Part shown: piece by piece, positions 2 to 48,996 of the stretch
Numbering within the stretch: the stretch's first letter is position 1
Layout of the letters: each line of letters opens with the position of its first letter
Origin: Candidatus Foliamicus sp.
GTDB lineage: Bacteria; Pseudomonadota; Gammaproteobacteria; Steroidobacterales; Foliamicaceae
Direction of reading: 5' to 3'
Assembly (NCBI GenBank): GCA_965206955.1
Contig: OZ242252.1
Location: forward strand, 1,795,771-1,859,770
Length of the DNA: 64,000 nt
Translations under genes and position numbers: made by a program
The notes under the pieces: model-generated
Seen by the model: the letters and a program-made list of their open reading frames with translations, nothing else
Databases searched by the model: none
Told to the model about the DNA's origin: nothing

Positions 2-442
2 GGATTCGCGGCCGACACCGAGCGCGGATTGCTGGTTCCGGTGATCCGCAACGCCGACAAGCTGGACGTCACGGAACTGGCGCGCGCCTTTCAGGAGCTT
101 TCCGCCAAGGCCCGCGAAGGCAAGCTGAAGCCCGACGAAATGCAGGGCGGGTCGTTCACGATTTCCAGCCTGGGCGGAATCGGCGGCACCGCGTTTACGC
201 CCATCATCAACGCGCCGGAAGTGGCGATTCTGGGCGTTTCACGGGCCCGAATGGCGCCCGTTTACAGTGACGGCGAGTTCAAGCCCCGACTGATGGCGCC
301 GATGTCGCTGTCCTACGATCACCGCGTAATCGACGGAGCTACGGCCGTGCGTTTCACGACGCGCTTGTGCGCCTTGCTGGCGGATGCGGAGCAGCTTCTC
401 GCGCCGGTCGGCGACCCAGACGATACGGGGAGCGAAGAGTGA
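2..442 (+). CDS. aceF: 2-oxoacid dehydrogenase E2 (dihydrolipoamide acetyltransferase), C-terminal catalytic domain; 5' end lies outside the window
   Basis: The frame is open from nt 2. The translation [20 protein letters not shown]...[33 protein letters not shown]...[12 protein letters not shown] contains the acyltransferase DHRxxDG active-site motif. It sits directly upstream of lpdA. Confidence 0.85.
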
Positions 443-1895: not shown

Positions 1896-2116
1896 CACTG
1901 GCGGGAAGCCCTTGTCCGGGATCAGAAACAAATGGGACTGGGATTGGGGGACTTTAGCACCTTTGTCCCGAAGGGAGCGTAGCGAACCAATCACACACCC
2001 GGCTCAGCCTTTGTGGATGGCTCTGAGTGAACCGGTATAGGCCCATAAGGGCTTGATTTGACTGGTGATTCGTGCTATAGTTCCAATCACGTCAACGGAC
2101 TGAACGGAGCCTCGAA

Positions 2117-3718: not shown

Positions 3719-3819
3719 ACGGCCGCCTGAACTGTGGATGAGCCACCTATGGTTCCAGCACAGTCCCGGATGGAGTGAGCTCGTACAGCCCTTTGCGCGC
3801 CAAGGGCGCATAGAATGAA

Positions 3820-6800
3820 TTGGCTGTGAATCGACTCTCGGGAGCATGCTTAAAGAGGCTCTGGCCTCTTGCCTGCATCGCATCCGTAGGCCTGTTGCAG
3901 GCGTGCTCCCAAATCACCCCGGCGGCGCAAGCGGATTGCGCAGACTGGAACACCAGGAATTTCTTCGACAGCGCGAACGCTGACAGAATTCGTGCATGTC
4001 TGGCTGCTGGAGCGGACCCCAATGCCAGGGGCAATAACGGCTACACGCCCCTGCATCGGGCAGCGGCTTCCCAGGAGAAAACGCCCGCGATATTTGGCAT
4101 GCTGATCGATTCCGGCGCCAACGTAAACGCAGTAAATAACGAAGGCGGCACGCCGCTGCATATGGTGGTGTGGTACGCGGGTGCTTCTCCTGTGGTGGCG
4201 ATGCTGATTGCCGCCGGCGCGGACCCGAACATTAGAGACGAATTAGGCCGAATGCCCCTGCACTGGGTGGCGGCGTCCAATGCCGAGATCGCGATTGCCG
4301 ATATGCTCATAGATGCAGGCGCCGAGACGAGTGCGAGGGACGGATTCGGAAGTACGCCACTGCATCGGGCAGTTCGGGACGGAAGGGTTGTAGGGATGGC
4401 GGTTGCATTGATTCAGGCCGGCGCAGACCTGAATGCGGCCAACCAAAGGGGCGTGACGCCTTTACATCGGGCGGTGGAGAGGCACGAGCCGGAATTTGTT
4501 GCGGCTTTGATCGATGCCGGTGCCCACCTGAATGGCGCGGATCGGGAAGGGGCTACTCCTCTTCACTGGGCGGCGCGATTGGTTGACAAGCTGGCGGTGA
4601 TTGAGGCGCTAATTGCGGCGGGGGCTGACGTAAGGGCTCGGGACAGGTTGGGCGCCACGCCGCTGCACACTGCTGCAAGAAATCTCGGGACCGGCCCGGC
4701 GACGCTCGCGCTGCTGATGGAGGCAGGCGTTGATCCCATGGCCAGGGACGAACAGGGACGAACCGTACTCCATTCCGCCGCGAGCGAGAACAACCGCGAG
4801 GTGCTGGCATTGCTGATCGATTCCGGCGTCGGCCTCGATGTTCGGGACAGCTTCGGGAATACACCGCTGCATGCGGCAGCGCAAAGCAATGGCATTTCGG
4901 TGGTGCAGGCTCTGCTTGCGGCTGGTGCGGACCTTCGTGCCCGGAATGAAAATGGCGAAACGCCCATTCTTGTGGCGGCTGAACACAATGACAATCCGGC
5001 TGTGATCGAGGCTCTCATTGACGCTGGCGCGGACCCTGGCTCGCGAAATGAGTACGGCAAAACGCTTCTCCACCGTGCAGTGATTAACAGCGGAAACCGG
5101 GACATTGTTGAATTGCTGATTCGAAGAGGCGCGGACCCCAACGCACGGGACAATGAAGGCGGCACGCCCCTGCACACGGAGGCCCGGCTCGGCGACAAAC
5201 CTGAAGAGATTACCATCTTGCTGGAAGCCGGCGCGGATCCTATGGCACGGGATAGTGAAGGTGCGACGCCGCTTCATAGCGCCGGGTGGGGAGGGCATTT
5301 TCCGAGGAATGTCGCCAGGCTGATAGAAGAGGGGGCCGATCCCAACGCTTCGGACATTTATTCCAGAACGCCACTTCATGCCGCGGCCACCTATGGCTCC
5401 GCTACTTTTGTATTGAAGTTGCTGGAGTTGGGTGCAGACCCAGGCGCACGCGACCTCCAGGGTGAGATTCCCTTGCACTATGCGGCAAATTGGAACGACG
5501 AACCTGCCGTGATCTCCGTATTGGTTCAAGCCGGCAGCGATCCGAACGCCCGTGACAGGAAAGGCGCCACACCATTGGACATGGCCGTTCGGGAGAACGG
5601 CAATCCCGACGTGGCGGCAGAGTTACGTGCAGCCGGCGCCGAAATGACCGCGCGGGAGAAGGACGGTAAGGCATCCCGGAACGACCAGCAGGACGAACTC
5701 AGCGCGAAAGAGTCTGGCGCCTCGGAGTCCGACCGTTCGGATCGGCAGGGAACAGGATCGACTGCCGGCGAATCAGCAGAAGCCGTAACTGACATGGCGG
5801 CTGCGGCGGCATGCACGAACTGGAATACGCCCCAGTTCTTTCACAAGGCGCAGGCAGCACAGGTTCGCGAATGTCTGGACGCCGGCGCGGACCCCATGGC
5901 GCGCGCCGATCGCGGTATTACTCCCCTGCATCTTGCGGCCTCGGTCAGTCAGGATCCTGCGGTATTCGACGCGCTGCTTAGTGCCGGCGCCGACATTCAC
6001 GCACGTGGCGATTTCGGCTATACGCCACTGCATTTTGCGGTATGGGGCAAGGTCCGATCGATGGCGGTTGCAGTGCTATTGGATGCCGGCGCTGATCCGA
6101 AGGTCCGGACCGATGACCGCGCGAGCCCTTTGCATTGGGTGGCGGCGACCCACGGTGATGTCGGCATTGCGACCGCACTGCTGAATGCCGGCGCCGATCC
6201 GAACGCACGGGACCGAAAGCAGTCCACTCCCCTGCATCAGTCGGCGAAGAATGGCAAGAATGCGGACCTTGCCATCGCTCTGATAAAAGCCGGTGCTGAG
6301 CCGATGGCACGGGACCAAGGCGGCTCCACCCCCCTGCATGAGGCGGCAGCGAATGGCAATCTCGCAATAATGACCGCGCTCATTGAAGCCGGCGCTGATC
6401 CGGTCGCAGAGAACCTGGGGCGCGATACGCCTCTCCATCGGGCTGCTGGCGGGGCCGCCGACCCCGCCGCTCTGGACGCGTTGATTGCAGCGGGTGCAGA
6501 TCTTCATGCTCGCAACGAAACTGGCTACACGCCTCTGCACAATGCAGCTGCGACCAATGAGAACCCGGCTATCGCGGCCGCTCTGATAGACGAGGGCCTC
6601 TCACCCATGGACCGGGATGAGTGGGAGCGCACGCCCTTGCATCTTGCAGCTGCCTACAATACGGCAGCCGTAGCGGCGATACTCATAAAAGCAGGCGCCG
6701 ATCCGAACCGGCGGAATAACCGAGGCGCCACACCGCTTCATGAGGCGGCGATGCGCGATTCACGGGCCAGCGCAGTAGTTCGGGACGCCGATCCGGAAAC

Positions 6801-7884
6801 GGTGGCCACGCGCTACGCTGTGATTCGCCAGCTTCTCGAAATGGGCGCAGACCCTGGGGCCAGGGACGAAAGAGGCGACACGCCGGTGCACAATGCGGCG
6901 GAGTACACGGACGACGGTGCGCTTATTTCTGCACTGATTGATGCCGGCGGCGAGCCTGGCGCCCGCAACGACCGGGGCCATCGACCGCTTGACCTGGCCG
7001 CCCGGCACAGTGGAAACCATACGTTGGTCGCCGCGCTGCTGGAAAGTGGCGCCGACCCCAATGCTCGCGGGCATGGCGAGTCCAGCCCCCTGCATAACGC
7101 GGCCGAGGGCGACGGAGATCTGGAAAATGTGCTGTTGCTGCTTGATGCGGGCGCTGACCCGATGGCCAGGGACCAACGCGGCAAGACACCGCTGCATCGG
7201 CTGAAGCGCGCGAACAGCCCCGAGGTTGTTACTGTTCTCATAGGCCGGGGCGCCGACCTCAACGCGCGCGATCAAGGAGGCGAAACACCTCTGCACAGTA
7301 TCGCCAGGTCCAACGGCAATCTCTCCGTCTTCGCCGCCCTGATCGATGCAGGGGCTGATCCCAAGGCCCTGAGCGACTTCAAGACTACAGTCCTGCACAG
7401 CGCCGCTACGAATAGAAATTCCCAGGTGGTCAGCTTCCTACTCACGGCCGGCGCAGATGCGTCCGCGCGGGACCACTGGGAAGGTACGCCGTTGCACATA
7501 GCTGCGGCTTACAACCCGGACCCTGCCGCAATCAGGATTCTGATCGATGCAGGGGCTGATCCCAACGCCCGGGAAGAAAGGGGCATTACGCCGCTGCACA
7601 AAGCGGTTATCCACGACAACGATCCTGCTGTGATCGCGGCACTGGTTGAAGCCGGGGCTGATCCCAACGGCTCGGGAGAGGAAGGTTCCTTGCCTTTGCA
7701 TATCGCTGCAAGGACAGGGCGCGATCCTGCCGTGATCACCGCGCTGCTGGAGGGCGGGGCCGATCCGAAATTGCGGGACAGCAACGGCGCACTTGCGTAC
7801 GAGTTAGCGCAAGAGAATGAGCAGCTTGCAGGTACCGACGTGCTGGAGGCGCTGAGAGTGGTCTCTGAACTCCCAGACCGCTAG
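3820..7884 (+). CDS. Giant secreted ankyrin-repeat protein (1354 aa), probable lipoprotein; two fused ANK units
   Basis: Near-continuous 33-aa ANK repeats (G-x-TPLH-x-A...LL-x-AGADPNARD). The N-terminus is hydrophobic with a lipobox-like LLQAC. Cys-motif modules occur at 3937 and 5812. The start codon is uncertain (TTG 3820 or GTG 3826). Confidence 0.88.
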   Translation: MAVNRLSGACLKRLWPLACIASVGLLQACSQITPAAQADCADWNTRNFFDSANADRIRACLAAGADPNARGNNGYTPLHRAAASQEKTPAIFGMLIDSGANVNAVNNEGGTPLHMVVWYAGASPVVAMLIAAGADPNIRDELGRMPLHWVAASNAEIAIADMLIDAGAETSARDGFGSTPLHRAVRDGRVVGMAVALIQAGADLNAANQRGVTPLHRAVERHEPEFVAALIDAGAHLNGADREGATPLHWAARLVDKLAVIEALIAAGADVRARDRLGATPLHTAARNLGTGPATLALLMEAGVDPMARDEQGRTVLHSAASENNREVLALLIDSGVGLDVRDSFGNTPLHAAAQSNGISVVQALLAAGADLRARNENGETPILVAAEHNDNPAVIEALIDAGADPGSRNEYGKTLLHRAVINSGNRDIVELLIRRGADPNARDNEGGTPLHTEARLGDKPEEITILLEAGADPMARDSEGATPLHSAGWGGHFPRNVARLIEEGADPNASDIYSRTPLHAAATYGSATFVLKLLELGADPGARDLQGEIPLHYAANWNDEPAVISVLVQAGSDPNARDRKGATPLDMAVRENGNPDVAAELRAAGAEMTAREKDGKASRNDQQDELSAKESGASESDRSDRQGTGSTAGESAEAVTDMAAAAACTNWNTPQFFHKAQAAQVRECLDAGADPMARADRGITPLHLAASVSQDPAVFDALLSAGADIHARGDFGYTPLHFAVWGKVRSMAVAVLLDAGADPKVRTDDRASPLHWVAATHGDVGIATALLNAGADPNARDRKQSTPLHQSAKNGKNADLAIALIKAGAEPMARDQGGSTPLHEAAANGNLAIMTALIEAGADPVAENLGRDTPLHRAAGGAADPAALDALIAAGADLHARNETGYTPLHNAAATNENPAIAAALIDEGLSPMDRDEWERTPLHLAAAYNTAAVAAILIKAGADPNRRNNRGATPLHEAAMRDSRASAVVRDADPETVATRYAVIRQLLEMGADPGARDERGDTPVHNAAEYTDDGALISALIDAGGEPGARNDRGHRPLDLAARHSGNHTLVAALLESGADPNARGHGESSPLHNAAEGDGDLENVLLLLDAGADPMARDQRGKTPLHRLKRANSPEVVTVLIGRGADLNARDQGGETPLHSIARSNGNLSVFAALIDAGADPKALSDFKTTVLHSAATNRNSQVVSFLLTAGADASARDHWEGTPLHIAAAYNPDPAAIRILIDAGADPNAREERGITPLHKAVIHDNDPAVIAALVEAGADPNGSGEEGSLPLHIAARTGRDPAVITALLEGGADPKLRDSNGALAYELAQENEQLAGTDVLEALRVVSELPDR

Positions 7885-7949
7885 CGCAAACCGAAATTGC
7901 GCATACCGCGTGCCTTCCTGATTTGCGTAACGTTTACAATCGGTTTGCT

Positions 7950-10316
7950 ATGAAACTCCTGCTCGACGGGTTGCGTTGCTTTCCGGCGATCGCCGTTCCA
8001 ATCGTTGCCGGCGTCCTGTTGATCCTGTCGCCGGGTTCGGTGCATGCCGCCGATGAGGAGTGTGCGGGTTGGAACACCAGGGAATTCTTCGAGAACGCTA
8101 CACGATCGCAAGTCGCGGAATGTCTCGAGTCGGGCGCGGAAAGCGACTCGCAGAACCGGGAAGGCGCGACGCCGTTGCACCTGGCGTCGGCGCATGGCGG
8201 CGACCCGGCAGTCATCGCTCTCCTGATCGAAGCTGGGGCAGACCCGAACGCGCGCGGTGATTTTGGCGATACGCCCCTACATGGCGCAACGCGCCACAAC
8301 GACAATGCTGACATAGTCGCCGCCGTGCTTGCCGCCGGCGCCGATCTGCACGCGCGCGACGATTTCGGTGAAACCCCACTGCATGACGCAGCCAGAAGAA
8401 ACGAGAATCCTGCGGTGATCCAGGCGCTGCTGGCTGCTGGCGCTGATCCCAAGGCGCGCGATGAGTTCGGCGAGACTCCGTTGCACAGGGCAGCCAGGAA
8501 CAGCAATCCTTCCATAACGCAAATCCTGATGGACGCCGGCGCTGATGTCGGCGCCAAGACCAATATGGGCGCAACGCCCCTGCATTGGGCGGCAAAGGTC
8601 AACGGGAATCCTGACATCGCCCGCATGCTGCTGGAGGCCGGCGCCGACCCCAATGCCCGCGACGAGAGCGGGGAAACCCCTCTTATCCGGGCTGTTCGCA
8701 AGAACACACGGGAGATGCTTTCCGTACTGCTTCAGGCCGGCGCCGACCCCCACGCACAATCCTGGTCGAGAGAAACCCCGTTGCATACTGCGGCGCGCCG
8801 CGGAAGTGTTGATATGGTCGCCGAACTACTCGAGGTTGGCGCCGATCCGCGAGCGCAAACGGCGAGCGGCGAAACGCCACTTCATTGGGCGGCGGAATTC
8901 AATGGTGATTCTGCCATGATTGGCCTTCTGCTGGATGCGGGCGCCGATCTTCACTCGCTTGATGAGTATGCCAACACGCCCTTGCACAGTGCGATGCGGA
9001 ACAGGAATCCGGCTGTCGCGCGAGAGCTTCTCAATGCCGGCGCCGATCCGAAAGCCAGCAATCAGGGGAATACAACTCCCCTTCAGGCAGCAGCCGACCG
9101 GGAAGACCCAAGCTTTGCATCCATGCTCCTGGCTGTTGGCGCCGATCCTTCCAGTTTGTCTGTCTGGAACCGGACCCCTCTGCGTTGGGCGGCTCGCTCG
9201 AACTCCAATCCTGTCGTTCTGACCCGGCTGCTGGAGGCTGTGACCGAACTCAAGGCTCGCAAGGAGCTTGCAACAAAGCTCTTGTACTCGGCTGCGCATA
9301 ACCCCAACCCTGCGGTGGCGCGCGTGCTTCTGGATGCCGGGGCGGATCCGAGCGGGTCAAAGGAATTCACTGGAACTGCATTACACGTCGCTGCGAGAAG
9401 TGACAACGCCGGAGTCGTGGCCATGCTCCTGGATGCCGGCGCCGATGTGAGTGCAAGAGACAGAGGTGACGGAACAGCATTGCACGCGGCCGCGGATTCA
9501 ATTGGCGATAGTGCAATTGTCGGAATGTTGCTGGATGCCGGGGTGGACCCGAATGCGCGCGATGATTTGAGCAATACTGCCCTGCACTTGGCAGCCAGAA
9601 GTTCTACCCCCTCTGTGGTGGCTACCCTGATTGACCGGGGCGCCGATCCGAACCTGCGCAACTTTGAGGGCGCAACGCCCTTGCACAAGATTGATTCGGA
9701 CCATGGCGCCGCGATGGCCACGGTCCTGCTGGAACGAGGCGCGGATCCGAATGCCCGGGACGATTCCGGAAAGACACCTCTTCATCGCGCTTCTCACAAG
9801 GGATCGGTCATTAACGGCGGTCGGATTCCGGACCGACGCGTGTTTCCCGTGGCGAATGTGCTGCTTCGTTTTGGCGCTGATCCGCTGGCTAAGGACAATT
9901 CCGGAGCAACACCCCGTTTTCGGGTCGTGAACGAAAGTGATCCGCCGATGGCCGCTTTACTGTTGAACCATGGCGCCAATCCGAACGTGCGCGATGAGAA
10001 CGGTCGAACGGTCCTTCACCAAGCCGCATTGAGCCGGGAACCTGCGTTCATTACGGCACTGTTGCGCGCCGGCGCCGACCCGAATCTACGCGATGATCGC
10101 CAACGTACTGCGCTTCACCTGGCGGCGATGGACAACGACCATCCGAGTGTGATTACCATGCTGATCGATGCAGGGGCCGATCCCGGAGCGAAGGATTCCA
10201 GCGGCAGGACTTCGTTGCACTACGTGCGGCGAAACCCTTGGCTGAATGCGACTGAAGTTGTGCGGCATTTGCAGCCGGCAGCGGAGCCAACCCAGGGCGG
10301 GCAAGGAGGCTCATGA
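7950..10316 (+). CDS. Secreted ankyrin-repeat protein (~788 aa)
   Basis: ATG at 7950 (MKLLLDGLRCFPAIAVPIVAGVLLILSPGSVHA, signal-peptide-like). This is followed by ECAGWNTREFFENATRSQVAECL and then ANK repeats along the whole length. Confidence 0.88.
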   Translation: MKLLLDGLRCFPAIAVPIVAGVLLILSPGSVHAADEECAGWNTREFFENATRSQVAECLESGAESDSQNREGATPLHLASAHGGDPAVIALLIEAGADPNARGDFGDTPLHGATRHNDNADIVAAVLAAGADLHARDDFGETPLHDAARRNENPAVIQALLAAGADPKARDEFGETPLHRAARNSNPSITQILMDAGADVGAKTNMGATPLHWAAKVNGNPDIARMLLEAGADPNARDESGETPLIRAVRKNTREMLSVLLQAGADPHAQSWSRETPLHTAARRGSVDMVAELLEVGADPRAQTASGETPLHWAAEFNGDSAMIGLLLDAGADLHSLDEYANTPLHSAMRNRNPAVARELLNAGADPKASNQGNTTPLQAAADREDPSFASMLLAVGADPSSLSVWNRTPLRWAARSNSNPVVLTRLLEAVTELKARKELATKLLYSAAHNPNPAVARVLLDAGADPSGSKEFTGTALHVAARSDNAGVVAMLLDAGADVSARDRGDGTALHAAADSIGDSAIVGMLLDAGVDPNARDDLSNTALHLAARSSTPSVVATLIDRGADPNLRNFEGATPLHKIDSDHGAAMATVLLERGADPNARDDSGKTPLHRASHKGSVINGGRIPDRRVFPVANVLLRFGADPLAKDNSGATPRFRVVNESDPPMAALLLNHGANPNVRDENGRTVLHQAALSREPAFITALLRAGADPNLRDDRQRTALHLAAMDNDHPSVITMLIDAGADPGAKDSSGRTSLHYVRRNPWLNATEVVRHLQPAAEPTQGGQGGS

Positions 10317-12625
10317 ATGACTCCAGTGCATAGAGCGCGCGCATTTGTCTTTCTGTTCTTGCCGCTGGCCGGCTCCGCGTCGGGCACGCCGCTCGACTGC
10401 GCATACTGGAACACCAGGGGGTTTTTTGAGCGCGCGGACGCCGCTCTGGTGCGTGAATGCCTTGCCGCCGGCTACGATCCCAATCAAACTGCCTATCGGG
10501 GCAGAACTGCCTTCGCTACGGCGGCGGCGGACCTGGCAGATCCCGCGGCATTGCAATCGCTGATCGACGCAGGAGCGGATGTCAATGCCCGGGACCAGGA
10601 CGGCGAAGCTCCCATCCATAGTGCGGCCCGTTTCAATTCCAACCCCGCCGTTATCGCCGTTCTCCTTCGAGCTGGAGCCGACCCGAACGAACGCGACGGG
10701 TCCGGCAGTACTCCACTCCATTTCGCCGCGCGCAATGAAAACCCTTCGATAGCCAGGGCACTCCTGCAGGCCGGCGCCGATCCGAAAGCGCATGAAGACT
10801 ACGGCATAACCCCGTTGCATGAGGCGGCGGAAAACAATATTCCCGAAATGACGCTCATGCTGCTTGCCGCCGGCGCCGATCCGAATGCCCGGGGCCATCT
10901 GGGCCAAACCCCATTGCACGACGCGGCCGAAGATAACCCCGATTCCGATGTGGTCCAGGCTCTCCTCAATGCCGGCGCCGACCCGAACGCACGTGACGAG
11001 AGAGGCGCTACTCCTCTTATGAGGGCAGCAGGCAAGAAGACTCACGAGGTGATTGCAATGTTGCTGGATGCCGGCGCCAACCCGGATATCCGGAACGATG
11101 AAGGCGAGACCGCGTTGCACCATGCGGCGACACAAAACGAATTTGCGGAAGTTTCCGCGACGCTTCTGGAGGCCGGCGCCGATCTGAATGCCCGGGATTC
11201 ACGCCCCTGCACGGTGCGGCCGAAAGCAACAAGAACGTGGCCGTGCTCGCCGTGCTCCTTGAGGCCGGCGCCGATCCGAATTCGCAGAATCCCGACGGAG
11301 ATACCGCCCTGCACGCGGCGGCGCGCGGCGACGGGAATGCTGCCGTAATTGTCGAACTGCTGGATACCGGCGCCGATCTGAGCCTGGTGAACGATCAGGG
11401 CAATACACCCTTGCATGAGGCCGCAAAGGCGGACAACCACTCGGGGGTGCGCACGCTATTGTCTGCAGGCGCCGACCCGAACCTGCGCAACGACACCGGA
11501 AATACGCCCCTGCATTGGGCGGTAAGGGAGCGCGGGGGAAGCTCTGTTACTGCCCTGCTTTTTTTCGGCGCTGATCCGAACAGTGCCGATTTCCAGGGTG
11601 TCAGGCCCTTGCATCTCGCGGCCAGGAACAGAGATTCGCCAGCTTCTGTGCGTGTTCTGCTGGATGCGGGCGCTGAGCTTGAGGCGCGGGACAACTTCGG
11701 TGACACCGCCTTGCACTACGCGATTCCTCGCGGCGAAATCTCCCGACCAGATCTTGCGCTCCTGAAAGCCGGCGCCGACCCGAACGCGCGCAACGATAGC
11801 GGCGCTACTCCATTGCATAGGGCGGTGACCCAGAACAATCTAAAGGTGGCTCGAGCGCTGCTGAATGCGGGCGCTGACCCGAATCTCACGGACACGTCCG
11901 GTGAAACCGCTTTGCACAAGGCCGCAGGAAATGTTCGTGGTGTTGATTCGCTCCTCTCGCCAAATATTCTTGAACTTGAAATGATCGAAACGCTTGTGGA
12001 TGCTGGAGCAGACATTCACGCCCGCGATGACTATGGCGGCACGCCCTTGCATTTGGCGGTGAGGCACAGCAATTGGACTGTGGCTGCTTCATTGCTGAAT
12101 CGCGGCGCCGACGTCAATGCCCGGGACGAATTCGGAGAAACGCCGCTGTTCAGGGCCGCATACGACCAGTACCACTTTGCGCCAGTGCCCGCGGTACCCC
12201 TGGACACCATCGGAAATTTGAAGGAAAGACGTGAAGACGGGCCGTCCGTCCCGCGCAAGGCTGCAGCTCATTTGCATCCTGCCGTAATCGAATTGTTGCT
12301 GGATTCCGGTGCAGATTTCAATGCGTGGCATGGCTGGGCGACGCTGCTTTACCTCGCCGCGGAGAGCAATCCTTATCCGGCCGTTATATCAGTTTTGGTC
12401 AATGCGGGTGCCGACCCGAATGCCCGGGGACATAGGAAATTTACTCCATTACATATGGCGGTGAGGAGCAACCCTAACACTGCCGTTATTACTGCGCTGC
12501 TGGATGCAGGCGCTGATCCCAAAGCGCGGGATCAACTCGGCAAGATTCCCTGGGACTACGCGCAGACTAACGGCTTCATTCAGGGAAGCGATGCCTGGAA
12601 TCGGCTGAAAGCTGCCAGCGAATAA
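10317..12625 (+). pseudogene. Ankyrin-repeat gene split by a frameshift (ORFs 10317-11348 and about 11198-12625)
   Basis: The first ORF has a signal peptide and the CAYWNTRGFFERADAALVREC module. ANK periodicity continues in another frame from about 11198 (FTPLHGAAESNKNVAVLAVLLEAGADPN). At 11196-11210 a repeat is truncated (NARD directly followed by TPLH). Confidence 0.7.
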
Positions 12626-12647
12626 GGGCACTCAGAACAGGTTTGTC

Positions 12648-15600
12648 GTGAATCCCACCAAGTCCAGGCATGACTGCATTGATCGAATCGCCGGCGTTGC
12701 CGTCTTCGCGTTGCTGATCCTTGCGAGTTCCGGCGCCGCTCTCGCCGAAAAAGCGGATTGCCACAAATGGAGCACCCGGGAATTTTTTGCAGAGGCGGAC
12801 GCGACCAAAGTCCGTGAGTGCCTGGCCGCCGGCGCGGACCCCAATGCGCGAGACGAGCGCGGTACTACGCCCCTGCATCACGTGATGGCGACCAGCGAGG
12901 ACCTGGCCGTAGGTCGGGCACTGATTGACGCCGGCGCCGAAATTAGTGCAAGAAATAACGACGGCCACGCGCCGCTGCATTATGCGGCTTCTCGTGCGGC
13001 TGAAACTTCTGCGGTCTCATTCCTCTTAGGTGCCGGCGCCGACCCAAACGCACCTAACGACTCTGGCGATAGGCCCCTGCACTGGGCGGTGCGATTCGAC
13101 AGTGATCTTGCGGTTTCCGCCATACTACTGGATGCCGGGGCGGACCCCAATGCAAGGAATAAATTGGGTGTAACACCCCTGCACGATGCCGTAAGGGGCG
13201 AAAATGCCGCCACCTTGTCCACCACGCTGATTTCCGCGGGTGCCGACCCGAACGCGCGCGATGAATTCGGCGACACGCCATTGCATTGGGCTACGGAAAA
13301 GGAAGAGTCGGGTCTGATCCAGTGGCTGATATCCACCGGCGCTGACCCGAACGCACGGGATCGGTGGGGCATCACCCCCTTGGCAGCGGCGGCTTACTAT
13401 GGAAATCCTGCTGCGACGGTGGCGCTGCTGGATGCCGGCGCTGATCCCGACGCGAAGGACATTCAAGGTGCTACTCCTCTGCATCAGGTTGCGAGGTATA
13501 GCCGGAACCCGGCCGTGATAGCCGCATTACTGGAGGCTGGCGCGGATGCTGCAGTGCGAGATGCGGATGCGTCTACACCCTTGCACAATGCAACGGCCGG
13601 CAATCATGGCGACATGTTCATCATGGGCACCGGCGCTCGCGGCGATCGCTACAGGAAAGACGGCAGGATCATCGATTACTGGGCGGACATCATGCATGCG
13701 ACCAAGCGGCACAGCCTGGATCCCGGCATGCTTGCCAGGCTATTGGACGCGGGCGCGAATCTTGAGGCTCGCGACGAGAATGGCCGTACTCCCCTTATCA
13801 GGGCGGCAGGTTGGAACCGCAATGCCACGGTTATCGTCACGTTGCTCGAAGCCGGCGCCGATCCTGGAGCGCGCGATGACCGGGGCAACGAGCCGCTGCA
13901 TGAAGCGGCGAGATACGGAAGCGAAGCTGTTGTGCTGACTCTGCTTGATGCCGGCGCCGATGCGAATGTCCGAAACGAGGACGGCGAGACCCCACTTCAC
14001 AAGGCGGCGTTCGACAGTGACAATCCGTCTGTTATTCGCGCGCTCGTTGATGCCGGCGCCGACCCGAATTCGCGAGACGATCATGGCGCAACGCCCCTGC
14101 ATGAAGCAATGATTCCTAGCGGGAACGGGGACATTGTTGACGCCCTATTGGGACACGGTGCGAACCCGAACGCTCGAGATAAGCGAGGCCGCACGCCGCT
14201 GCACATAGAGGCATGGGCTAGCGACGAGACTGAGGAGGTAGCCGTGCTGCTGGACGCCGGCGCTGATCCGCACGCGCGCGACGATGAGGGCTCGACGCCG
14301 CTGCATGGAGCCGCGTGGGGAGGACGCAATCTCAAGACCATCGCCAGACTGATAGAAGAGGGCGCAGACCCCAACGCTCAAAACAAGCATCTGACAACGC
14401 CCCTGCACGCGGCGGCAAGCAACAGTATTCCTTCAGTCGTAGCCAAGCTCCTGGAATCCGGCGCCGATCCGAACGCCCGGGACAACCAGGGGGCCGTTCC
14501 TCTGCACAACGCCGCAAAGCGCAACAAGAATCCTGGTGTAATTCCGCTGCTGATTGAAGCCGGCGCCGACCCGAACGCGCGTGATCGGCATGGCGCTACG
14601 CCTTTGGATATTTCTTTGCGTGAAAACGGCAATCCCGCAGTAGCGACAGCCCTGCGTGAAGCCGGCGGAGACCTCAGCGCCAAAGAAGAGAATGGCACTT
14701 TAGCGGGAGACAACAATCAGGGTCAGGTCAGCAACGGAGACTCCGATCAAAGTGGGCAGGCGCAATCAACTCCACCCAAAGGGAAATCAAGTCTGCGCGC
14801 AACGGATGGAGCGGACACCAACCTGGACGCTTTGGCGGCCTGCGCTGACTGGAACACGCCCGAGTTCTTCCTCAGAGCTGAGGTTGTACAGGTTCACGAT
14901 TGTCTGGACTCCGGCGCGGACCCTATGGCGCGTGCCGAGCGCGAAATCACTCCTTTGCATTACGCGGCCTCTGTCAGCGAGGATGCCGGGGTATTCGACG
15001 CGTTGCTGAATGCCGGAGCCGACCTTCACGGACGCAGTCAGTACGGCTACACACCGTTGCATTTCGCGGTATGGGGAAAGGTCCGACCAGTGGCCGTCGC
15101 CGTGCTTCTGGATGCCGGCGCCAATCCCAAGGCCGAGACTGAGTTTGGAGCAACCCCATTGCATTGGGTGGCGCAGACTCACGGTGATGTCGGTATTGCC
15201 TCCGCGCTGCTGGAAGCTGGCGCTGATCCGAACGCGCAAGACCGGGAGGGATCTGCGCCCCTCCATCAGTTGGTCGAGAAAGGCGAGAATCCTGCCTTGG
15301 CAGTTGCGTTAATTGAGGCTGGCGCGGACCCCAACGCCAAAGAACAGACATTTGGGGATACGCCCCTGCATAAAGCGGCAGCGAAGAGCAGCATCGCCAT
15401 GATCAACGCTCTCTTGGATGCCGGCGCGGACCCGAACGCACGCAATGCGAGACGCAAAACACCCATGCATCGCGCCGCGGGCGGGGCCGGCGACCCGGCC
15501 GTGCTGGCCACTCTGATAGCCGCCGGGGCAGTAGTGGGAGTTCGCGACGAGAACGATATGACCCCACTGCACAGTGCGGCATTGGGCAATAGGAACCCGG

Positions 15601-16964
15601 AAGTCGCGGCTGCGCTTATCGACGCCGGTCTTTCCCCTGAAGAACGTGACCACTCGGGCTATACGCCGCTACATCTGGCAGCCGCCTGGAATAGCGCGGC
15701 CGTTACGGCATTTCTGATTGAGGCGGGCGCCGATCCCGATGCGATAGATGATTACGGGCATACCCCCTTGCACTCTTTGGCCGACAACAACTTCGAGCCT
15801 GACATGCTCGCTACGATTGACGTGCTGCACAAAGTGGGCGCCGATCCAAATACACACGAAGAAATATTCGGATCGACGCCGCTTCATGACGCGGTGAGCC
15901 GGGATTCACGTCCAAGAGGGTTACCTCGCGACGCTGATCCCACAACGATTGAAGCGGAGCGAGCGAAGAACGTGGCATTGCGCCTGGCCCTGGTCGGCGC
16001 GCTCCTCGACATCGGTGCCGATCCCGGCGCCCGGGACGATGCAGGCAATATGCCGCTGCACAAGGCCGCCGAGAAAACGAACGATGAAGCGGTGATTTCA
16101 TCGCTGATTGAAGCTGGCGCTGATATTCAAGTGCTCAACAACCAGGACCAGAGGCCACTCGATCTGGCCGCTGGCGGCAGCGGCAACTCTGCCGTTGTCG
16201 CCGCGCTGCTGGAACGCGGCGCCGACGTGAATGCCGTTGGTCCGGCTGGATCAACCCCGCTGCATCACGCTCTTTCGGGCTCTGCGGACCTTGCGAATGT
16301 TCTCGCGCTTCTGGATGCGGGCGCCGATCCGATGGCCAGGGACCGCATCGGCAATACGCCGCTGCATCGCCTGGTACGCGCCAACAGCCCCGATGTGGTC
16401 TCGGCACTTGTGGACCGTGGCGCCGACCCGAACGCGCGCAATCAGCGTGGCTCCACGCCTCTGCACGGAGTAGCCTCATTGAATAACAATGCTTCCGTTG
16501 TCTCCGCCTTGATCGAAGCGGGCGCGGACCCCCATGTGCGCAATGACTTCAAGTCAACACCTCTGCACTCCGCCGCTCCCAACGTGAATTCCGCCGTAAT
16601 CCGTGTGCTCCTGGATGCCGGCGCCGAGCCGAACGCACTTGAGATTTCCGGCGATGCACCCTTGCACAACGCAGCGTCCCACAACCCGGATCCCGCCGTA
16701 ATCAGCGCACTGATTGCCGCCGGCGCCGATCCCAACGTGTGGGGAAGGGAGAACACTGCACCGCTGCACATTGCGGCCCGATGGGGGCGCTATCCAGCTG
16801 TGATTGGCGCACTGCTGGACGGCGGCGCTGATCCGATGGCGCTCGACGGTGAAGGTGAACTTCCCTATGAGAAGGCCCTGGAGAACGAGCGCCTCGAAGG
16901 AACCGAGGCGCTGCAGCGACTGAAATCCGCCACGTACCCAAAGAGCGCCAGCTCAACCCGATAG
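12648..16964 (+). CDS. Giant secreted ankyrin-repeat protein (1438 aa); two fused ANK units; collinear paralogue of 3820-7884
   Basis: GTG start, hydrophobic N-terminus (GVAVFALLILASSGAALA), Cys-motif modules at 12759 and 14841, and ANK repeats throughout. Confidence 0.88.
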   Translation: MNPTKSRHDCIDRIAGVAVFALLILASSGAALAEKADCHKWSTREFFAEADATKVRECLAAGADPNARDERGTTPLHHVMATSEDLAVGRALIDAGAEISARNNDGHAPLHYAASRAAETSAVSFLLGAGADPNAPNDSGDRPLHWAVRFDSDLAVSAILLDAGADPNARNKLGVTPLHDAVRGENAATLSTTLISAGADPNARDEFGDTPLHWATEKEESGLIQWLISTGADPNARDRWGITPLAAAAYYGNPAATVALLDAGADPDAKDIQGATPLHQVARYSRNPAVIAALLEAGADAAVRDADASTPLHNATAGNHGDMFIMGTGARGDRYRKDGRIIDYWADIMHATKRHSLDPGMLARLLDAGANLEARDENGRTPLIRAAGWNRNATVIVTLLEAGADPGARDDRGNEPLHEAARYGSEAVVLTLLDAGADANVRNEDGETPLHKAAFDSDNPSVIRALVDAGADPNSRDDHGATPLHEAMIPSGNGDIVDALLGHGANPNARDKRGRTPLHIEAWASDETEEVAVLLDAGADPHARDDEGSTPLHGAAWGGRNLKTIARLIEEGADPNAQNKHLTTPLHAAASNSIPSVVAKLLESGADPNARDNQGAVPLHNAAKRNKNPGVIPLLIEAGADPNARDRHGATPLDISLRENGNPAVATALREAGGDLSAKEENGTLAGDNNQGQVSNGDSDQSGQAQSTPPKGKSSLRATDGADTNLDALAACADWNTPEFFLRAEVVQVHDCLDSGADPMARAEREITPLHYAASVSEDAGVFDALLNAGADLHGRSQYGYTPLHFAVWGKVRPVAVAVLLDAGANPKAETEFGATPLHWVAQTHGDVGIASALLEAGADPNAQDREGSAPLHQLVEKGENPALAVALIEAGADPNAKEQTFGDTPLHKAAAKSSIAMINALLDAGADPNARNARRKTPMHRAAGGAGDPAVLATLIAAGAVVGVRDENDMTPLHSAALGNRNPEVAAALIDAGLSPEERDHSGYTPLHLAAAWNSAAVTAFLIEAGADPDAIDDYGHTPLHSLADNNFEPDMLATIDVLHKVGADPNTHEEIFGSTPLHDAVSRDSRPRGLPRDADPTTIEAERAKNVALRLALVGALLDIGADPGARDDAGNMPLHKAAEKTNDEAVISSLIEAGADIQVLNNQDQRPLDLAAGGSGNSAVVAALLERGADVNAVGPAGSTPLHHALSGSADLANVLALLDAGADPMARDRIGNTPLHRLVRANSPDVVSALVDRGADPNARNQRGSTPLHGVASLNNNASVVSALIEAGADPHVRNDFKSTPLHSAAPNVNSAVIRVLLDAGAEPNALEISGDAPLHNAASHNPDPAVISALIAAGADPNVWGRENTAPLHIAARWGRYPAVIGALLDGGADPMALDGEGELPYEKALENERLEGTEALQRLKSATYPKSASSTR

Positions 16965-17083
16965 CGCAAATCACGAATTGCCTTCGTGATCCAGGTAAAC
17001 CCGGCAGGAACAAGAAAGCGGTAGATCATCGATGGAATGGCGCCCCACTATTGCACCGAAATGAGGCTTAGAATCACCCCTTC

Positions 17084-19192
17084 ATGACGCAACCAAACTT
17101 GAATCCGCGTTCAGCTCAGAGGCGACCGCCATGGGCGCTTTCTTCTGCCTTGATTCTGCTGTCTTGTGGTAGCGCGCTCGGGTGGGCTGCCGACTGCGAG
17201 CAATGGAACACCCAGGAATTCTTCGAGCAGGCGGACGCGGAGCAAGTGCGTGAGTGCCTGGATTCCGGCGCCGACGCCAGTGCCGCGAACGAGAACGGCG
17301 CCACGCCGCTACATTGGGTGGTGGCCCATAGCTCGGATGCCGCCGTTGTGGACATGCTGATTGCGGCTGGGGCGGACCCGGGCGCGGCTGATCGAGGGCA
17401 CATGACACCCCTTCACTTGTGGGCATCGGCTAACGGTGATCCTGTCGTGGTGTCGTCGCTGATCGAAGCCGGGGCCGATCCGGACGCAGCGAATCGCCTT
17501 GGCGACACCCCACTGCATTGGGCGGTTGCTGGAGACGTCGATCCTGCCGCTATTGTTGGGCTACTTGATGCCGGTGCTGACGTGCATGCATTGGGTTGGC
17601 GGGGCCTCACGCCATTGCAAAGGGCGGCGAGTTCCAGCAGCAACCTTGAGGTTTTCGCAGCCCTGCTCGAGGCGGGCGCCGATGTGAGCGATCAGGGTGC
17701 AGATGGATTGACGCCGCTACATCTGGCGGCGCAGGACATCGATAGCCCTTCGGTATTGGCTTTGTTGATTGAAGCCGGGGGCGATCCGAACGTGAAGGAC
17801 AGGTATGGACGGACACCCCTGCACTTTGCCGCACAGTCAAACAGCAATCCCGCCATCACCGCCGCGCTCATTGCCGCGGGGTCAGATACAGGGGCTCGTA
17901 ATGAAAGCGGCTCCACGCCGCTGCATGCTTCATCGCAGAATGAGAATCCTAAAGTGGCCGTGGAGTTGCTGGCCGCTGGAGCGGATCCGAATACTCGGGA
18001 CGAGCGGGGAAACACCCCCCTTCACTTTGCGGCGCGGGGAAATGTAGAGGCCATTTCAGCATTATTGGATGCCGGCGCTATCGTTGACGCGCGCAACGAA
18101 TTCGGCGATACGCCTCTGCATAACGCCGCAAGCCGGCAACAGCCGGCCGTGGCTGCAGCGCTGCTTGAGGCGGGGGCTGATCCCGATGCGCGCAATGAAC
18201 GCGATGATACGCCGTTGCACCTGGCCTTTCGGCGAGCTGAAGACGCTGCCATTGCTCGAATACTGTTAGATGCCGGTGCTGACCTTCATGCGCGGGATCG
18301 TCAGGGCAGATCGCCCTTGCATGCGGCAGCGATTGGCAGTCAGGTCCCAGCCGTAATCAATTTGCTGCTTGAATTGGGCGCCGAGATTGGTGATCGGGAT
18401 AATAATGGCAGAACACCCTTGCACGCTGCGGCCGCGCGAAATGAGAATACCGACATTCTTGCTGCCCTGCTGGATGCTGGCGCCGATCCCAAGGCGCTGG
18501 ACGAATCCGGCCAGATTCCCGTGCATGCAGCGGCAACGAATAACGGCAATCCGGATGTAGTCGCGATGCTCTTGGATGCCGGCGCCGATCCGGACGTCAG
18601 GACCGCCAGCGGGGAGACGCCCCTGCACCTGGCCAGTCAGAGAAACAGAAATGTTGCCGTCGTCGAGACCTTGCTGGATGCCGGCGCCGATGTGCTGGCT
18701 TCGAATGACTATGGAGAGACACCCCTGCATGCGGCCGTTTACAACAGCCCGTCCGTCGCTTCGTCGCTGATTGCCGCAGGCGCTGACCTGCAGGCCCGCG
18801 ACAATTCGGACGACACGCCTTTACACAGACTTGCCCACGTCCGCGAACCCGCGGCTGCGCCTGTGTTTCTTGCAGCGGATGTTGATCTTGATGCTCGGAA
18901 CCACCACGGCGACACGCCCCTGCATCTGGCGGCATATAACAACCTCCATGTCGCCGTAAAGCTGTTGGACGCCGGCGCCGATCCAAATGTCAGGAACGAC
19001 ACCAATACGACACCCCTTCACCGTGCGGCGAAGAATAGTTCTGAACCGGCCCTGGTTGCCGTGCTGCTTGATGCCGGAGCGGACCCTGCCGCGCAGGACA
19101 ACGAGGGGAATACTCCCTGGGATAGCGCCCAGGGAAACGAGTTCATTCGGGGGACCGACGCCTGGCAGCGGCTCAAGGCCGCAAGTGAATGA
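17084..19192 (+). CDS. Secreted ankyrin-repeat protein (702 aa)
   Basis: ATG start and signal-like WALSSALILLSCGSALGWA, then CEQWNTQEFFEQADAEQVREC. ANK repeats follow. C-terminal cap is GNTPWDSAQGNEFIRGTDAWQRLKAASE. Confidence 0.9.
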   Translation: MTQPNLNPRSAQRRPPWALSSALILLSCGSALGWAADCEQWNTQEFFEQADAEQVRECLDSGADASAANENGATPLHWVVAHSSDAAVVDMLIAAGADPGAADRGHMTPLHLWASANGDPVVVSSLIEAGADPDAANRLGDTPLHWAVAGDVDPAAIVGLLDAGADVHALGWRGLTPLQRAASSSSNLEVFAALLEAGADVSDQGADGLTPLHLAAQDIDSPSVLALLIEAGGDPNVKDRYGRTPLHFAAQSNSNPAITAALIAAGSDTGARNESGSTPLHASSQNENPKVAVELLAAGADPNTRDERGNTPLHFAARGNVEAISALLDAGAIVDARNEFGDTPLHNAASRQQPAVAAALLEAGADPDARNERDDTPLHLAFRRAEDAAIARILLDAGADLHARDRQGRSPLHAAAIGSQVPAVINLLLELGAEIGDRDNNGRTPLHAAAARNENTDILAALLDAGADPKALDESGQIPVHAAATNNGNPDVVAMLLDAGADPDVRTASGETPLHLASQRNRNVAVVETLLDAGADVLASNDYGETPLHAAVYNSPSVASSLIAAGADLQARDNSDDTPLHRLAHVREPAAAPVFLAADVDLDARNHHGDTPLHLAAYNNLHVAVKLLDAGADPNVRNDTNTTPLHRAAKNSSEPALVAVLLDAGADPAAQDNEGNTPWDSAQGNEFIRGTDAWQRLKAASE

Positions 19193-19221
19193 ATGAGCCT
19201 GGTGAGTGCCAGGCGGCCTGC

Positions 19222-19602
19222 TCAATCTGCCAGCCAGCGGAGCAGGGGCAGGATAACGATGGCCAGTGTGGCTGCCGCCAGGAAAGTCATGGAACGCACG
19301 GCGGAACGGAGGTAATCGGCAGCCAGGTCCGTTGCTTCACCCAGCCAGGCGGGTAGTGCGTCCATCACGCTCATATCTATGCCGCCAATGGCGGCGCTGA
19401 TTTCCCACAGGGCCGGTGCGGCGAGAATGGCCGCGATCAGGCCGCAGCCGCCCAAAACCAGCCACCGGATACGTTCCTGCCGGCGGATGCGCTTCATAAC
19501 GCCTCTCACAAACTGGTCGTCTTGCTCCGGAGCCGCAACTGTCGCGGTGAGCAGTTGCGCCAACTCGCGATCCCTTTCCTGTTCGTTGTCAGACCCGTGC
19601 AT
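19222..19602 (-). CDS. Putative anti-sigma factor / membrane protein cotranscribed with the ECF sigma factor
   Basis: 126 aa, overlapping the sigma gene's stop by 14 nt. It has one or two hydrophobic segments (WLVLGGCGLIAAILAAPALW and FLAAATLAIVILPLL). No zinc-binding anti-sigma motif was seen. The call rests on position. Confidence 0.55.
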   Translation of the reverse strand: MHGSDNEQERDRELAQLLTATVAAPEQDDQFVRGVMKRIRRQERIRWLVLGGCGLIAAILAAPALWEISAAIGGIDMSVMDALPAWLGEATDLAADYLRSAVRSMTFLAAATLAIVILPLLRWLAD

Positions 19603-20125
19603 CGAACTGCTCCCGCACCTTTTGGCTGCCGCGGTGGATCAGTGACTTGACCGTACCCAGCGGTAGGCCGGTCAATTCGCTGACCTCGCCATGAGAATAT
19701 CCGTAAGCATAATTCAGGACCACCACTGCCCGCTCACGCTCGGAAAGAACGGCAAGAACCCGCTGTAGCTCAAGGGCTTTGTACGGCCTTTCCGACTCGT
19801 CATTGGATGTGAGTATTTCCTGTTCCGTTGCGTGCCGGTCCATCAAACGCTCGCGTCGGAGCGAAGTGCGCCGTTTTTGCAGGAACTCGCTATACGCAAT
19901 CTTCATGAGCCAAGGGGCGAAGCGAGTCGTGTCCTTAAGGTCTACGATGCGGTTCCAGGCACGAACGAAGGCGTCCTGAGCCAGGTCATCCGCCTCGGCA
20001 TGCTCTCCGCAGAGTTGGCGCAGCCAGCCGCGCACTCGTCCCTGGTGGCGCGCAACGAGTTCCCCGTACGCTTCACGGTCGCCGAACCGAGCGCGCAGCA
20101 CGAGCTGCGGGTCGCTTTCGCGCAC
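19589..20125 (-). CDS. ECF-type RNA polymerase sigma factor (sigma-70 family, group 4)
   Basis: The region 2 sequence (AEADDLAQDAFVRAWNRIVDL...WLMKIAYSEFLQKRR) and region 4 HTH (LSERERAVVVLNYAYGYSHGEVSELTGLPLGTVKSLIHRG) are typical of ECF sigma factors. Confidence 0.9.
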   Translation of the reverse strand: MRESDPQLVLRARFGDREAYGELVARHQGRVRGWLRQLCGEHAEADDLAQDAFVRAWNRIVDLKDTTRFAPWLMKIAYSEFLQKRRTSLRRERLMDRHATEQEILTSNDESERPYKALELQRVLAVLSERERAVVVLNYAYGYSHGEVSELTGLPLGTVKSLIHRGSQKVREQFDARV

Positions 20126-20144
20126 GACGCGCTCCGTAGCGTTC

Positions 20145-20540
20145 CTACTGGTCGTGGCGCGACCGCAATACCCACAAGAGAGTCAGCCCCAATCCGATCA
20201 GCAACGGAATGGACCCGATGCCCATCATGGGTCCGAATGCGTCCTCCTCTCCAATAAGGTAGCCGAATGCGCCAATGCCAAGGCCCACCGCAATAAGGAC
20301 GACGCCGCGGCGCAGGTCCTGGTCCTTCTTGGGTTCGGGTTTCTTGGGTTGGCTGATGGCCTCCAGAGCTTCCATTGGAAGTTCCTGGCCCTTCTCGATT
20401 GCGGCCCGGATGGTAGCTTGCAAGGCCTGGTTTCTTCGATAGCGAAAGTACTGTATGACAGCCACAATGCCGAAGGTTGTGAGCAACGCCGTAATGGGAA
20501 CTAGCCTATCCGCCAACATACCAAATTCATGCACGCCCAT
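20145..20540 (-). CDS. Small integral membrane protein (first gene of the ECF operon)
   Basis: ATG at 20540 is preceded by GGAGA. The protein has three predicted TM segments and a central charged helix. The upstream part of ORF 20145-20876 is antisense to an ANK gene and was rejected. Confidence 0.6.
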   Translation of the reverse strand: MGVHEFGMLADRLVPITALLTTFGIVAVIQYFRYRRNQALQATIRAAIEKGQELPMEALEAISQPKKPEPKKDQDLRRGVVLIAVGLGIGAFGYLIGEEDAFGPMMGIGSIPLLIGLGLTLLWVLRSRHDQ

Positions 20541-20575
20541 AGAAATCTCCAGATTCAATTTGCCTTTACATACTA

Positions 20576-20597
20576 ACGATGCTCTCCAAGCTTCGTT
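20576..20597 (-). promoter_or_regulatory. Possible ECF-type promoter (AAC-N16-CGT on the minus strand) upstream of the sigma operon
   Basis: The minus strand reads AAC-gaagcttggagagcat-CGT, 36-57 nt upstream of the ATG at 20540. It matches only the minimal ECF core spacing, so the call is speculative. Confidence 0.25.
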
Positions 20598-20651
20598 TGG
20601 ATGCATTTGCGTGCGTCTGAAACGCATGTGCAAGCGGACTGAAGGATAAAC

Positions 20652-46284: not shown

Positions 46285-46302
46285 TCTGATCCCTCAATCA
46301 TC

Positions 46303-48988: not shown

Positions 48989-48996
<8 letters not shown>
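48683..48996 (-). pseudogene. AbiEii/AbiGii-family nucleotidyltransferase toxin remnant (N-terminal 22 aa joined out of frame to a C-terminal piece)
   Basis: MDKRYVDQVRLLLSVLPDIAT matches the AbiEii N-terminus. The frame then breaks, and a C-terminal-like segment follows in ORF 48683-48880. Confidence 0.5.

Follow-up and report, generated by a model that had tools for sequence, protein, structure and literature searches.

The locus described here lies in a 64,000-nt stretch of Candidatus Foliamicus sp. contig OZ242252.1; this whole stretch is referred to as the window, and its open reading frames (ORFs) were scored against Pfam and NCBIfam. Three minus-strand genes, set within an array of plus-strand ankyrin repeat (ANK) genes, make up a bona fide extracytoplasmic function (ECF) sigma factor operon and belong to a widespread type of triad linked to DUF6249. 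The first gene (20145..20540) encodes a DUF6249 membrane protein of 131 amino acid residues, the second (19589..20125) an ECF (group 4) sigma factor of 178 residues, and the third (19222..19602) a protein of 126 residues with two transmembrane (TM) helices, a putative anti-sigma factor. The sigma gene has a GTG start 19 nt past the DUF6249 stop codon and overlaps the gene of the 126-residue protein by 14 nt, which implies translational coupling of the two. The ORF check confirmed the three ORFs, their coordinates and the overlap as given in the original prediction. Its descriptions of the products were also borne out: the small 3-TM protein has three hydrophobic segments and belongs to DUF6249, the sigma call agrees with both the domains and the superfamily model, and the membrane protein has two hydrophobic segments, with its gene call as a putative anti-sigma factor upheld. 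The GC content of the cassette (60.3%) equals that of its surroundings. No terminator was found past position 19222 by a consensus scan, and the local hairpin was no better than shuffles (z -0.46). The three genes are predicted to form one operon behind an upstream ECF-type promoter.

The sigma factor is small and contains the sigma-2 and sigma-4 domains only (Sigma70_r2, 51 bits; Sigma70_r4_2, 54.5 bits; Pfam), and it passed the NCBIfam model of the ECF superfamily, TIGR02937, with 82.7 bits against a cut-off of 42.9. On its domain composition it is assigned to the ECF (group 4) sigma-70 factors. No NCBIfam equivalog cut-off was reached; the best model was PRK12518 (106 bits against 208) and the second-best was SigY PRK09638 (101 bits against 194). 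At E <= 1e-10, 533 homologues of the sigma factor were found.

The first gene product matched PF19762 with 69.9 bits (Pfam cut-off, 33; E = 2e-19) over residues 15-125 and profile positions 4-102 of 104, and the same family was carried by all 120 homologues listed, of 131 DUF6249 homologues. According to the hydrophobic-segment scan and an AlphaFold2 (AF2) model, the protein has three TM helices and a conserved cytoplasmic loop of ~45 residues (RAAIEKGQELP...KDQDLRRG), which is its best-conserved part. The AF2 model is all-helical, with a predicted local distance difference test (pLDDT) score of 86 and helices at residues 3-49, 56-63, 74-96 and 99-130; the long first TM helix (TM1) runs on into a cytoplasmic helix. 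A Foldseek search of this fold against the PDB gave generic helical-hairpin matches only (E >= 1). The DUF6249 gene was located directly upstream of the sigma gene in all cassettes compared.

The 126-residue protein has a cytoplasmic N-terminus of ~45 residues (L..LF...P..D..FV..V...IRRRER.RW), two TM helices separated by a periplasmic loop of ~38 residues, and a near-invariant C-terminus, PLLRWLAD. No match was found in Pfam, NCBIfam or the PDB (profile search), Pfam was also blank for 18 orthologues, and nothing rose above threshold in Pfam or NCBIfam for 42 distant relatives. A profile search among 1.84 billion representatives recovered 45 relatives, all of 94-133 residues, whose likeness resides mainly in the N-terminus and TM1. 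Collinear, sub-threshold hits to DUF5056 (PF16479) were obtained for 8 of the 42 distant relatives (15-20 bits against a cut-off of 28; best E = 1.5e-5), and they cover only the N-terminal half of the profile; the protein of the window gave no DUF5056 hit. A remote homology between this family and DUF5056 is possible. The AF2 model is all-helical and, with a pLDDT of 60, too poor for a fold search. No model of a class I anti-sigma domain, zf-HC2 or the RskA type hit the 126-residue protein or its 42 relatives. The class I domain comprises ~80-90 residues, often with HxxxCxxC, as against ~45 residues ahead of TM1 here, and the sole cysteine of the protein lies inside TM1. By position, coupling and topology, the 126-residue protein is likely the anti-sigma factor and DUF6249 the accessory protein.

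The divergent intergenic region (20541..20651) between the cassette and an ANK gene at 20652 is 111 bp long and has a GC content of 44% against 61% for the window, in agreement with the AT-richer gap first noticed. On its minus strand lies a conserved ECF-type promoter motif, GCATCC-N16-GCATC (20578..20604), with a -35-like block (GCATCCAAAC) and a -10-like block (GCATCGT) that ends 37 nt ahead of the DUF6249 ATG codon. When the ~195 nt ahead of the DUF6249 gene were aligned for 20 loci (A1), GCATCC(A) and GCATC were invariant and the rest was unalignable. Exactly one full match was found per orthologous locus, in the same place each time, within the 10 kb scanned on either side of each orthologue; the motif occurs once in the window and precedes no ANK gene there. 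With a 43-nt position weight matrix (PWM), the window promoter scored 48.6 bits, whereas null maxima averaged 8.6 and the highest was 18.2. We infer that GCATCC-N16-GCATC would be the sigma factor's own autoregulatory promoter. The two blocks have the pentamer GCATC in common, and the promoter is quasi-palindromic (20562-20610), 26 of 39 positions being equal to their own reverse complement, which produces a weak shadow site on the plus strand facing the ANK gene. This site was the next-best in the window with the 43-nt PWM (20562-20604, 17.9 bits) and scored 14.6 bits with a two-block matrix (20567-20598); it overlaps the cassette promoter on the opposite strand, lies within the null range and was rejected as a candidate. 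The original prediction had proposed a minimal AAC-N16-CGT element at 20576-20597 on the minus strand. Such an element is present and in the right location for the promoter, but the information resides in GCATCC and GCATC rather than in AAC and CGT. AAC-N16-CGT alone is uninformative, since the window contains 35 copies where 24.8 +/- 5 would be expected, and it also matches the plus strand at 20576-20597 because AACG...CGTT is self-complementary.

The promoter motif was kept in distant cassettes (L023, L024 and L031-L034) at 48-59% sigma identity, and one-base variants were present in two further cassettes found via DUF6249 homologues (L035 and L036; 40-43% identity), including that of the cultured Lentisalinibacter sediminis. 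A 31-34-residue ORF lies between motif and DUF6249 gene in two of the distant cassettes (L031, 5430-5534; L034, 5366-5461), and one metagenome cassette (L057, 7908-8402) has the motif twice, 464 nt apart. When metagenome collections were scanned with the pattern GCATCCAAA-N13-GCATY-NN-TA, at least 121 matches were obtained. Among the 121 matches listed, 24 were located 0-530 nt upstream of DUF6249 and sigma cassettes, usually with a member of the 126-residue family downstream of the sigma gene. A pattern of 15-16 bases is expected to give mostly chance hits in such a collection, and the 24 cassette hits thus represent a very strong association. High-scoring matches outside cassettes preceded unrelated genes (hemolysin-III-like, clpX and others) in unrelated organisms, so that no regulon signal was obtained from them.

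The identical sigma protein was found on several ENA metagenome contigs with the same locus (L001-L006, six strain variants), and 18 orthologous loci (L007-L024, one genome per species) were collected, all from gammaproteobacterial metagenome-assembled genomes (MAGs). Several of these MAGs are labelled Candidatus Foliamicus (order Ca. Foliamicales), and the isolate names RHO1, CAR4, COS2 and SB0673 suggest sponge metagenome bins. The order of the triad and the overlap of its last two genes were conserved in all six strain variants and all 18 species-level orthologues. The window proteins were mapped by tblastn onto the relatives' loci, within 10 kb on either side of each orthologue, and a fixed backbone was revealed: HvfC - DoxX - (endoV) - [DUF6249 - sigma - 126-residue protein] - lpdA, with lpdA convergent. 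By Pfam and tblastn, the ancestral convergent neighbour in the window is an lpdA-like dihydrolipoyl dehydrogenase gene (367..1854, plus strand), and the ancestral upstream neighbours are endoV (23953-24633) and DoxX (24773-25588), together spanning 23953..25588 on the minus strand. In L012-L016 and L018-L022, DoxX or endoV precedes the cassette, lpdA follows ~20-350 bp after the gene of the 126-residue protein, and no ANK-like sequence was detected by tblastn within 10 kb. ANK genes were found in the gap between cassette and lpdA only in L007, L008, L010 and L011, in the gap between endoV and cassette only in L009 (a single intact gene of 764 residues), and in both gaps in the strain group of the window. 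In all, ~17 related sponge-associated MAGs hold the cassette in this position, and most of them have no ANK genes in the vicinity. In the sigma tree, the ANK-linked loci fall mainly into one clade, with L011 apart. The triad was also found in distant cassettes, by rpsO-pnp/truB-infB, by TamAB, near a TonB receptor and in L. sediminis; these members of the family sit in unrelated neighbourhoods without ANK genes. Since ANK-free relatives hold the cassette in the same slot, it is ancestral at this site, with the ANK genes accreted later. Comparative synteny thus places the cassette before the surrounding ANK genes, in an ancestral position between DoxX/endoV and lpdA, and marks the two flanking gaps as plastic regions into which ANK and mobile genes were inserted and then expanded.

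Several other genes were noted along this backbone. In L009, the space between the ANK gene and the cassette (7333-9137) holds genes called by eye as a PIN-domain toxin and an IS630-like transposase, the latter as two overlapping ORFs. In the window, a DUF222/HNH endonuclease gene (2117-3718, plus strand) is situated between lpdA and the first ANK gene; the longer ORF opposite it (2087-3883), for which no family match was found, is probably spurious. DoxX, HvfC (DUF2063/NGO1945_C) and MbnB/DUF692 are encoded by the genes that ancestrally preceded the cassette directly (24773-27333, minus strand), and the set belongs to ECF sigma regulons in Neisseria and Caulobacter; a motif of the cassette type was not found before these genes in the window.

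By Pfam, ANK proteins account for every other large ORF on the plus strand within 3820-23919, as had been proposed. On the lpdA side, an ANK array (3820..19192, plus strand) occupies what was ancestrally the gap up to the 3' end of the cassette. On the opposite side, in the gap that ancestrally separated endoV from the cassette promoter, lies another ANK gene (21921..23919, plus strand). It is interrupted by a +1 frameshift, as the poly-C run near 23435 contains an additional C, for which slippage or a sequencing artefact may account; its orthologues in L001 and L009 are intact (744 and 764 residues). The ANK gene that faces the cassette (20652..21863, plus strand; PF00023, 234 bits over 10 stretches) was said to be the only one without a signal peptide and a Cys module (D-C-x-x-W-N). 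Both are absent there, but 11237-12625 and 23485-23919, the only other ORFs of this kind, lack them likewise, being the downstream halves of frameshifted genes. The first of these belongs to a disrupted ANK gene (10317-12625) that carries a 10-bp deletion (AGACGGGGCT, near 11200) relative to sister strains.

The facing ANK gene is a 5'-truncated allele. Its sister alleles encode 476-600 residues, start with MRIVMKSDR..., carry a signal peptide and a DCENWN module, and share their C-terminus with the 403-residue ORF of the window. The TTG start at 20652 is not the real N-terminus, the first ~18 codons being 5' untranslated region in the sister strains. The DNA of the window runs collinear with that of the sister strains, at 97-99.5% identity, over 19000-20705, which ends shortly before their ATG codon; beyond the junction (~20697-20705), the window resumes at sister codon ~123. 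The 374 bp missing from the window lie between two GCCGCG microhomologies, and their loss deprived the gene of its start codon together with the signal peptide, the Cys module and the initial repeats. The truncation is best described as a strain-private 374-bp 5' deletion that left the cassette and its promoter untouched. No sigma-70-type promoter for this ANK gene was found in the intergenic region. ANK lengths also vary among the strains with the identical sigma factor (window and L001-L006; 504/600/476/340+161, 744/672/642, 702/735/736, 1438/1406/1340 and 728/772 residues), and three of the length-variant contigs come from one metagenome assembly (ERZ28763718), an indication that the number of repeats is polymorphic between strains that are closely related and possibly co-exist.

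A two-block PWM with 15-17-nt spacers was applied to the 400 nt upstream of the ANK genes in the window, L002 and L007-L011, and no site of 16 bits or more was found before any of them, in line with the earlier inspection by eye; among the 121 metagenome matches listed, none precedes an ANK gene. Under the null, ~0.9 sites of at least 14 bits are expected per 64 kb. Two matches with 15-nt spacers on the minus strand were rejected, one (13545-13570) being antisense inside an ANK gene and the other (27980-28005) inside an HhH-GPD gene, where it is conserved only in near-identical strains and L010. Three pseudo-sites of 13-14 bits (13541-13571, 18043-18073 and 6056-6087, all minus strand) were likewise dismissed as antisense ANK DNA, which is rich in GCATCC because the L-D-A within LLDAGAD, the ANK consensus, is encoded by GGATGC. 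Gaps of 0-119 nt separate the six ANK ORFs of the array (3820-19192), one pair overlaps at a frameshift, and together they probably constitute one transcription unit that starts far from the cassette and reads towards its 3' end. Nothing in the window indicates that the cassette would control the ANK genes there.

The situation is different in one relative, L017, where a near-perfect second copy of the motif was found at 14607-14638 (GCGCATCCAAACCGGCGGCATCCGGCATTCTTAG; GCGCATCCAAAC-N-GCATT); a signal-peptide ANK gene (14828-15766) begins ~190 nt further downstream in the same orientation. The similarity of this site to the native L017 promoter is limited to ~47 nt, and it scored only 17.5 bits with the over-fitted 43-nt matrix. 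It provides a single, suggestive case of a candidate link from the sigma factor to an ANK gene. The surrounding 8-kb island (10925-18713), between cassette and lpdA, also encodes a 928-residue protein that by eye is helicase-like at its N-terminus and 2OG-oxygenase-like at its C-terminus; besides the ANK gene at 14828-15766, which is apparently frameshifted, it contains a second small signal-peptide ANK gene at 18019-18348.

The triad resembles arrangements described elsewhere. In Bacteroides, DUF5056, DUF6249 and a sigma factor are neighbours (bioRxiv 10.1101/2025.05.12.653583), and in Porphyromonas gingivalis the DUF6249 gene PG1662 is two locus tags from the ECF sigma gene PG1660 (PMC12094164; PMC9862357). 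The likeness consists of DUF6249 beside an ECF-type sigma factor, with DUF5056 as a third small protein in Bacteroides; unlike these cases, the cassette of the window belongs to another phylum, and its 126-residue protein has no DUF5056 hit, those of its relatives staying below 28 bits. As to function, mutant phenotypes of PG1660 (oxidative stress and gingipain activity; PMC9862357) are all that has been shown for either type. The ECF31 factor SigY, which needs both YxlC and YxlD (PMC7826278), is likewise encoded with two small membrane proteins, and in both systems the two are probably needed for control. In contrast to SigY, whose model the window's sigma factor fails to reach, the accessory gene comes first in the window, and the likeness is one of layout. 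CnrY of CnrYXH is a minimal class II-like membrane anti-sigma factor. The 126-residue protein may resemble it, with a very short cytoplasmic N-terminus before the membrane and no zinc-binding HxxxCxxC; unlike CnrY, the protein has two TM helices rather than one, and no CnrX-like periplasmic sensor partner accompanies it. Eukaryote-like ANK repeat protein arrays are known from sponge symbionts. The genes flanking the cassette, which encode signal-peptide ANK proteins in sponge-associated MAGs, fit this pattern; they are context only, and no regulatory link to the cassette was found in the window.

Taken together, we consider it likely that the cassette is a self-contained, autoregulated ECF module that was in place first, and that the ANK genes of the window are its neighbours and not its targets. 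In this model, the sigma factor would recognize GCATCC-N16-GCATC and drive its own operon. The 126-residue protein would hold the sigma factor at the membrane through its cytoplasmic N-terminus, as a minimal anti-sigma factor outside class I, and DUF6249, almost wholly membrane-embedded, would act through its conserved cytoplasmic loop as an accessory partner that modulates release. As hardly any part of either membrane protein reaches into the periplasm, a perturbation of the membrane itself would be a more likely signal than a soluble ligand. The ANK arrays, together with the IS630-like transposase, the PIN toxin and the HNH/DUF222 gene seen in various relatives, were inserted later into the two flanking gaps and expanded there. 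Several points weigh against this model. NCBIfam places the sigma factor at superfamily level only, without a group assignment; the 126-residue protein matches no anti-sigma family and its AF2 model is of low confidence; the roles of both membrane proteins are read from context, and use of the promoter by the sigma factor is deduced from the surrounding sequence. Moreover, ANK linkage recurs in the six closest species, and the second site in L017 scored 27.0 bits against a maximum of 22.1 in ten simulations of equal total length.

The original prediction had offered two readings of the locus, and both concern the ANK genes. According to one, the regulator operon was inserted into an ANK gene and truncated it. 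A signal-less ANK gene abutting the cassette gives this appearance in the present window only; relatives without ANK genes have the cassette in the corresponding syntenic slot, a full-length ANK gene is kept by sister strains whose sigma factor is identical and whose cassette and intergenic DNA is 97-99.5% identical, the lesion is a deletion between GCCGCG sites with an otherwise intact intergenic region, and the cassette does not differ in GC content from its surroundings. The synteny and the strain-private deletion refute the insertion, which retains virtually no probability. According to the other reading, the sigma factor is a dedicated regulator that drives the flanking ANK genes, as secreted host-interaction effectors, and thereby couples envelope sensing to effectors. 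Consistent with it, the cassette has ANK arrays beside it both in the strain group of the window and in five related species, it is divergent from the ANK gene at 20652 across a shared 111-bp region, the shadow site faces that gene, and the second motif of L017 exceeds the null maximum before a secreted ANK gene. Against it, conservation of the cassette with its promoter extends to ~10 orthologous loci that lack ANK genes and to ~30 unrelated cassettes, neither the upstream scans of the window, L002 and L007-L011 nor the listed metagenome matches connected the motif with ANK genes, the spacer-derived half of the null-range shadow site is not conserved in other species, and the packed array looks like a unit that starts far away. 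The prediction had also named a complete absence of ANK linkage among orthologous sigma operons as evidence against regulation; linkage was found, in the nearest clade only. We regard dedicated control of the ANK locus as improbable; it was unsupported in the window, and the L017 site is the sole point in its favour. A narrower version, in which a membrane-sensing sigma factor has been recruited in some sponge symbionts to drive secreted ANK genes through an acquired or duplicated promoter, as in L017, is given a small chance.

The proposed autoregulated module itself could also be read differently in two respects. The GCATCC...GCATC direct repeat might be the operator of another DNA-binding regulator, because its blocks share GCATC and begin 22 bp, or two helical turns, from each other, a spacing that a tandem-binding regulator could use. 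The 16-nt gap and the distance of ~30-40 nt to the start codon nevertheless fit the -35/-10 geometry of ECF promoters, and the motif accompanies the cassette into unrelated genomes, where the sole constant DNA-binding protein is this sigma factor; an operator is thus quite improbable. More weight is due to the possibility that the membrane roles are reversed or shared, with the DUF6249 loop binding the sigma factor, or both proteins being needed, and the 126-residue protein serving as accessory or sensor. Such a system would resemble SigY-YxlC-YxlD or SigM-YhdL-YhdK of B. subtilis, both three-component ECF systems with an anti-sigma factor and a small accessory membrane protein. DUF6249 is linked to the sigma gene as strictly as the 126-residue protein is, its best-conserved part is the cytoplasmic loop, its counterpart carries no known anti-sigma domain, and ECF31 SigY requires both of its partners (PMC7826278). 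On the other side, the 14-nt translational coupling belongs to the gene of the 126-residue protein, which gives it the usual position and stoichiometry of an anti-sigma factor, and the layout of a cytoplasmic N-terminus ahead of a TM helix is in keeping with membrane anti-sigma factors. Reversed or shared roles are accordingly held to be unlikely, and the assignment of the 126-residue protein as anti-sigma factor is retained in the model of an autoregulated module.

Elsewhere in the window, the region 45013-63267 looks like a set of tandem genomic islands integrated at tRNA-Ser. It contains serS followed by tRNA-Ser(TGA) (46302-46390), further tRNA-Ser(TGA) copies at 57364-57452 and 63180-63267, and a duplicated 3' fragment of serS (62580-63167). 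The intervals between the tRNA-Ser copies include lower-GC stretches (48-53%) and carry an ImmA/IrrE-helix-turn-helix gene (58100-59185), a ThsB-like TIR-domain gene (60182-61039) and an IS3-type transposase gene (61345-62487).

For annotation, these results remove the tempting story of a regulator inserted into an effector array and set the order of events as cassette first and ANK genes later. They also define a compact, widespread triad, consisting of DUF6249, then the sigma factor, then a two-TM protein of ~110-130 residues, and the sharply conserved GCATCC-N16-GCATC motif is directly testable as an orthogonal sigma/promoter pair; the cultured L. sediminis carries the triad and could serve for genetics. 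The L017 site provides one candidate sigma-dependent ANK promoter that is worth an experiment. If recruitment of the sigma factor were true, repeated ANK accretion would be the footprint of regulatory capture, and the envelope state inside the host would be linked to the expression of host-manipulating proteins. The value of the locus lies in a clean promoter definition, in the hint from L017 and in a hot spot of ANK turnover: for the biology of sponge symbionts, the two gaps beside the conserved cassette are places where ANK genes are gained, expanded and lost to decay.

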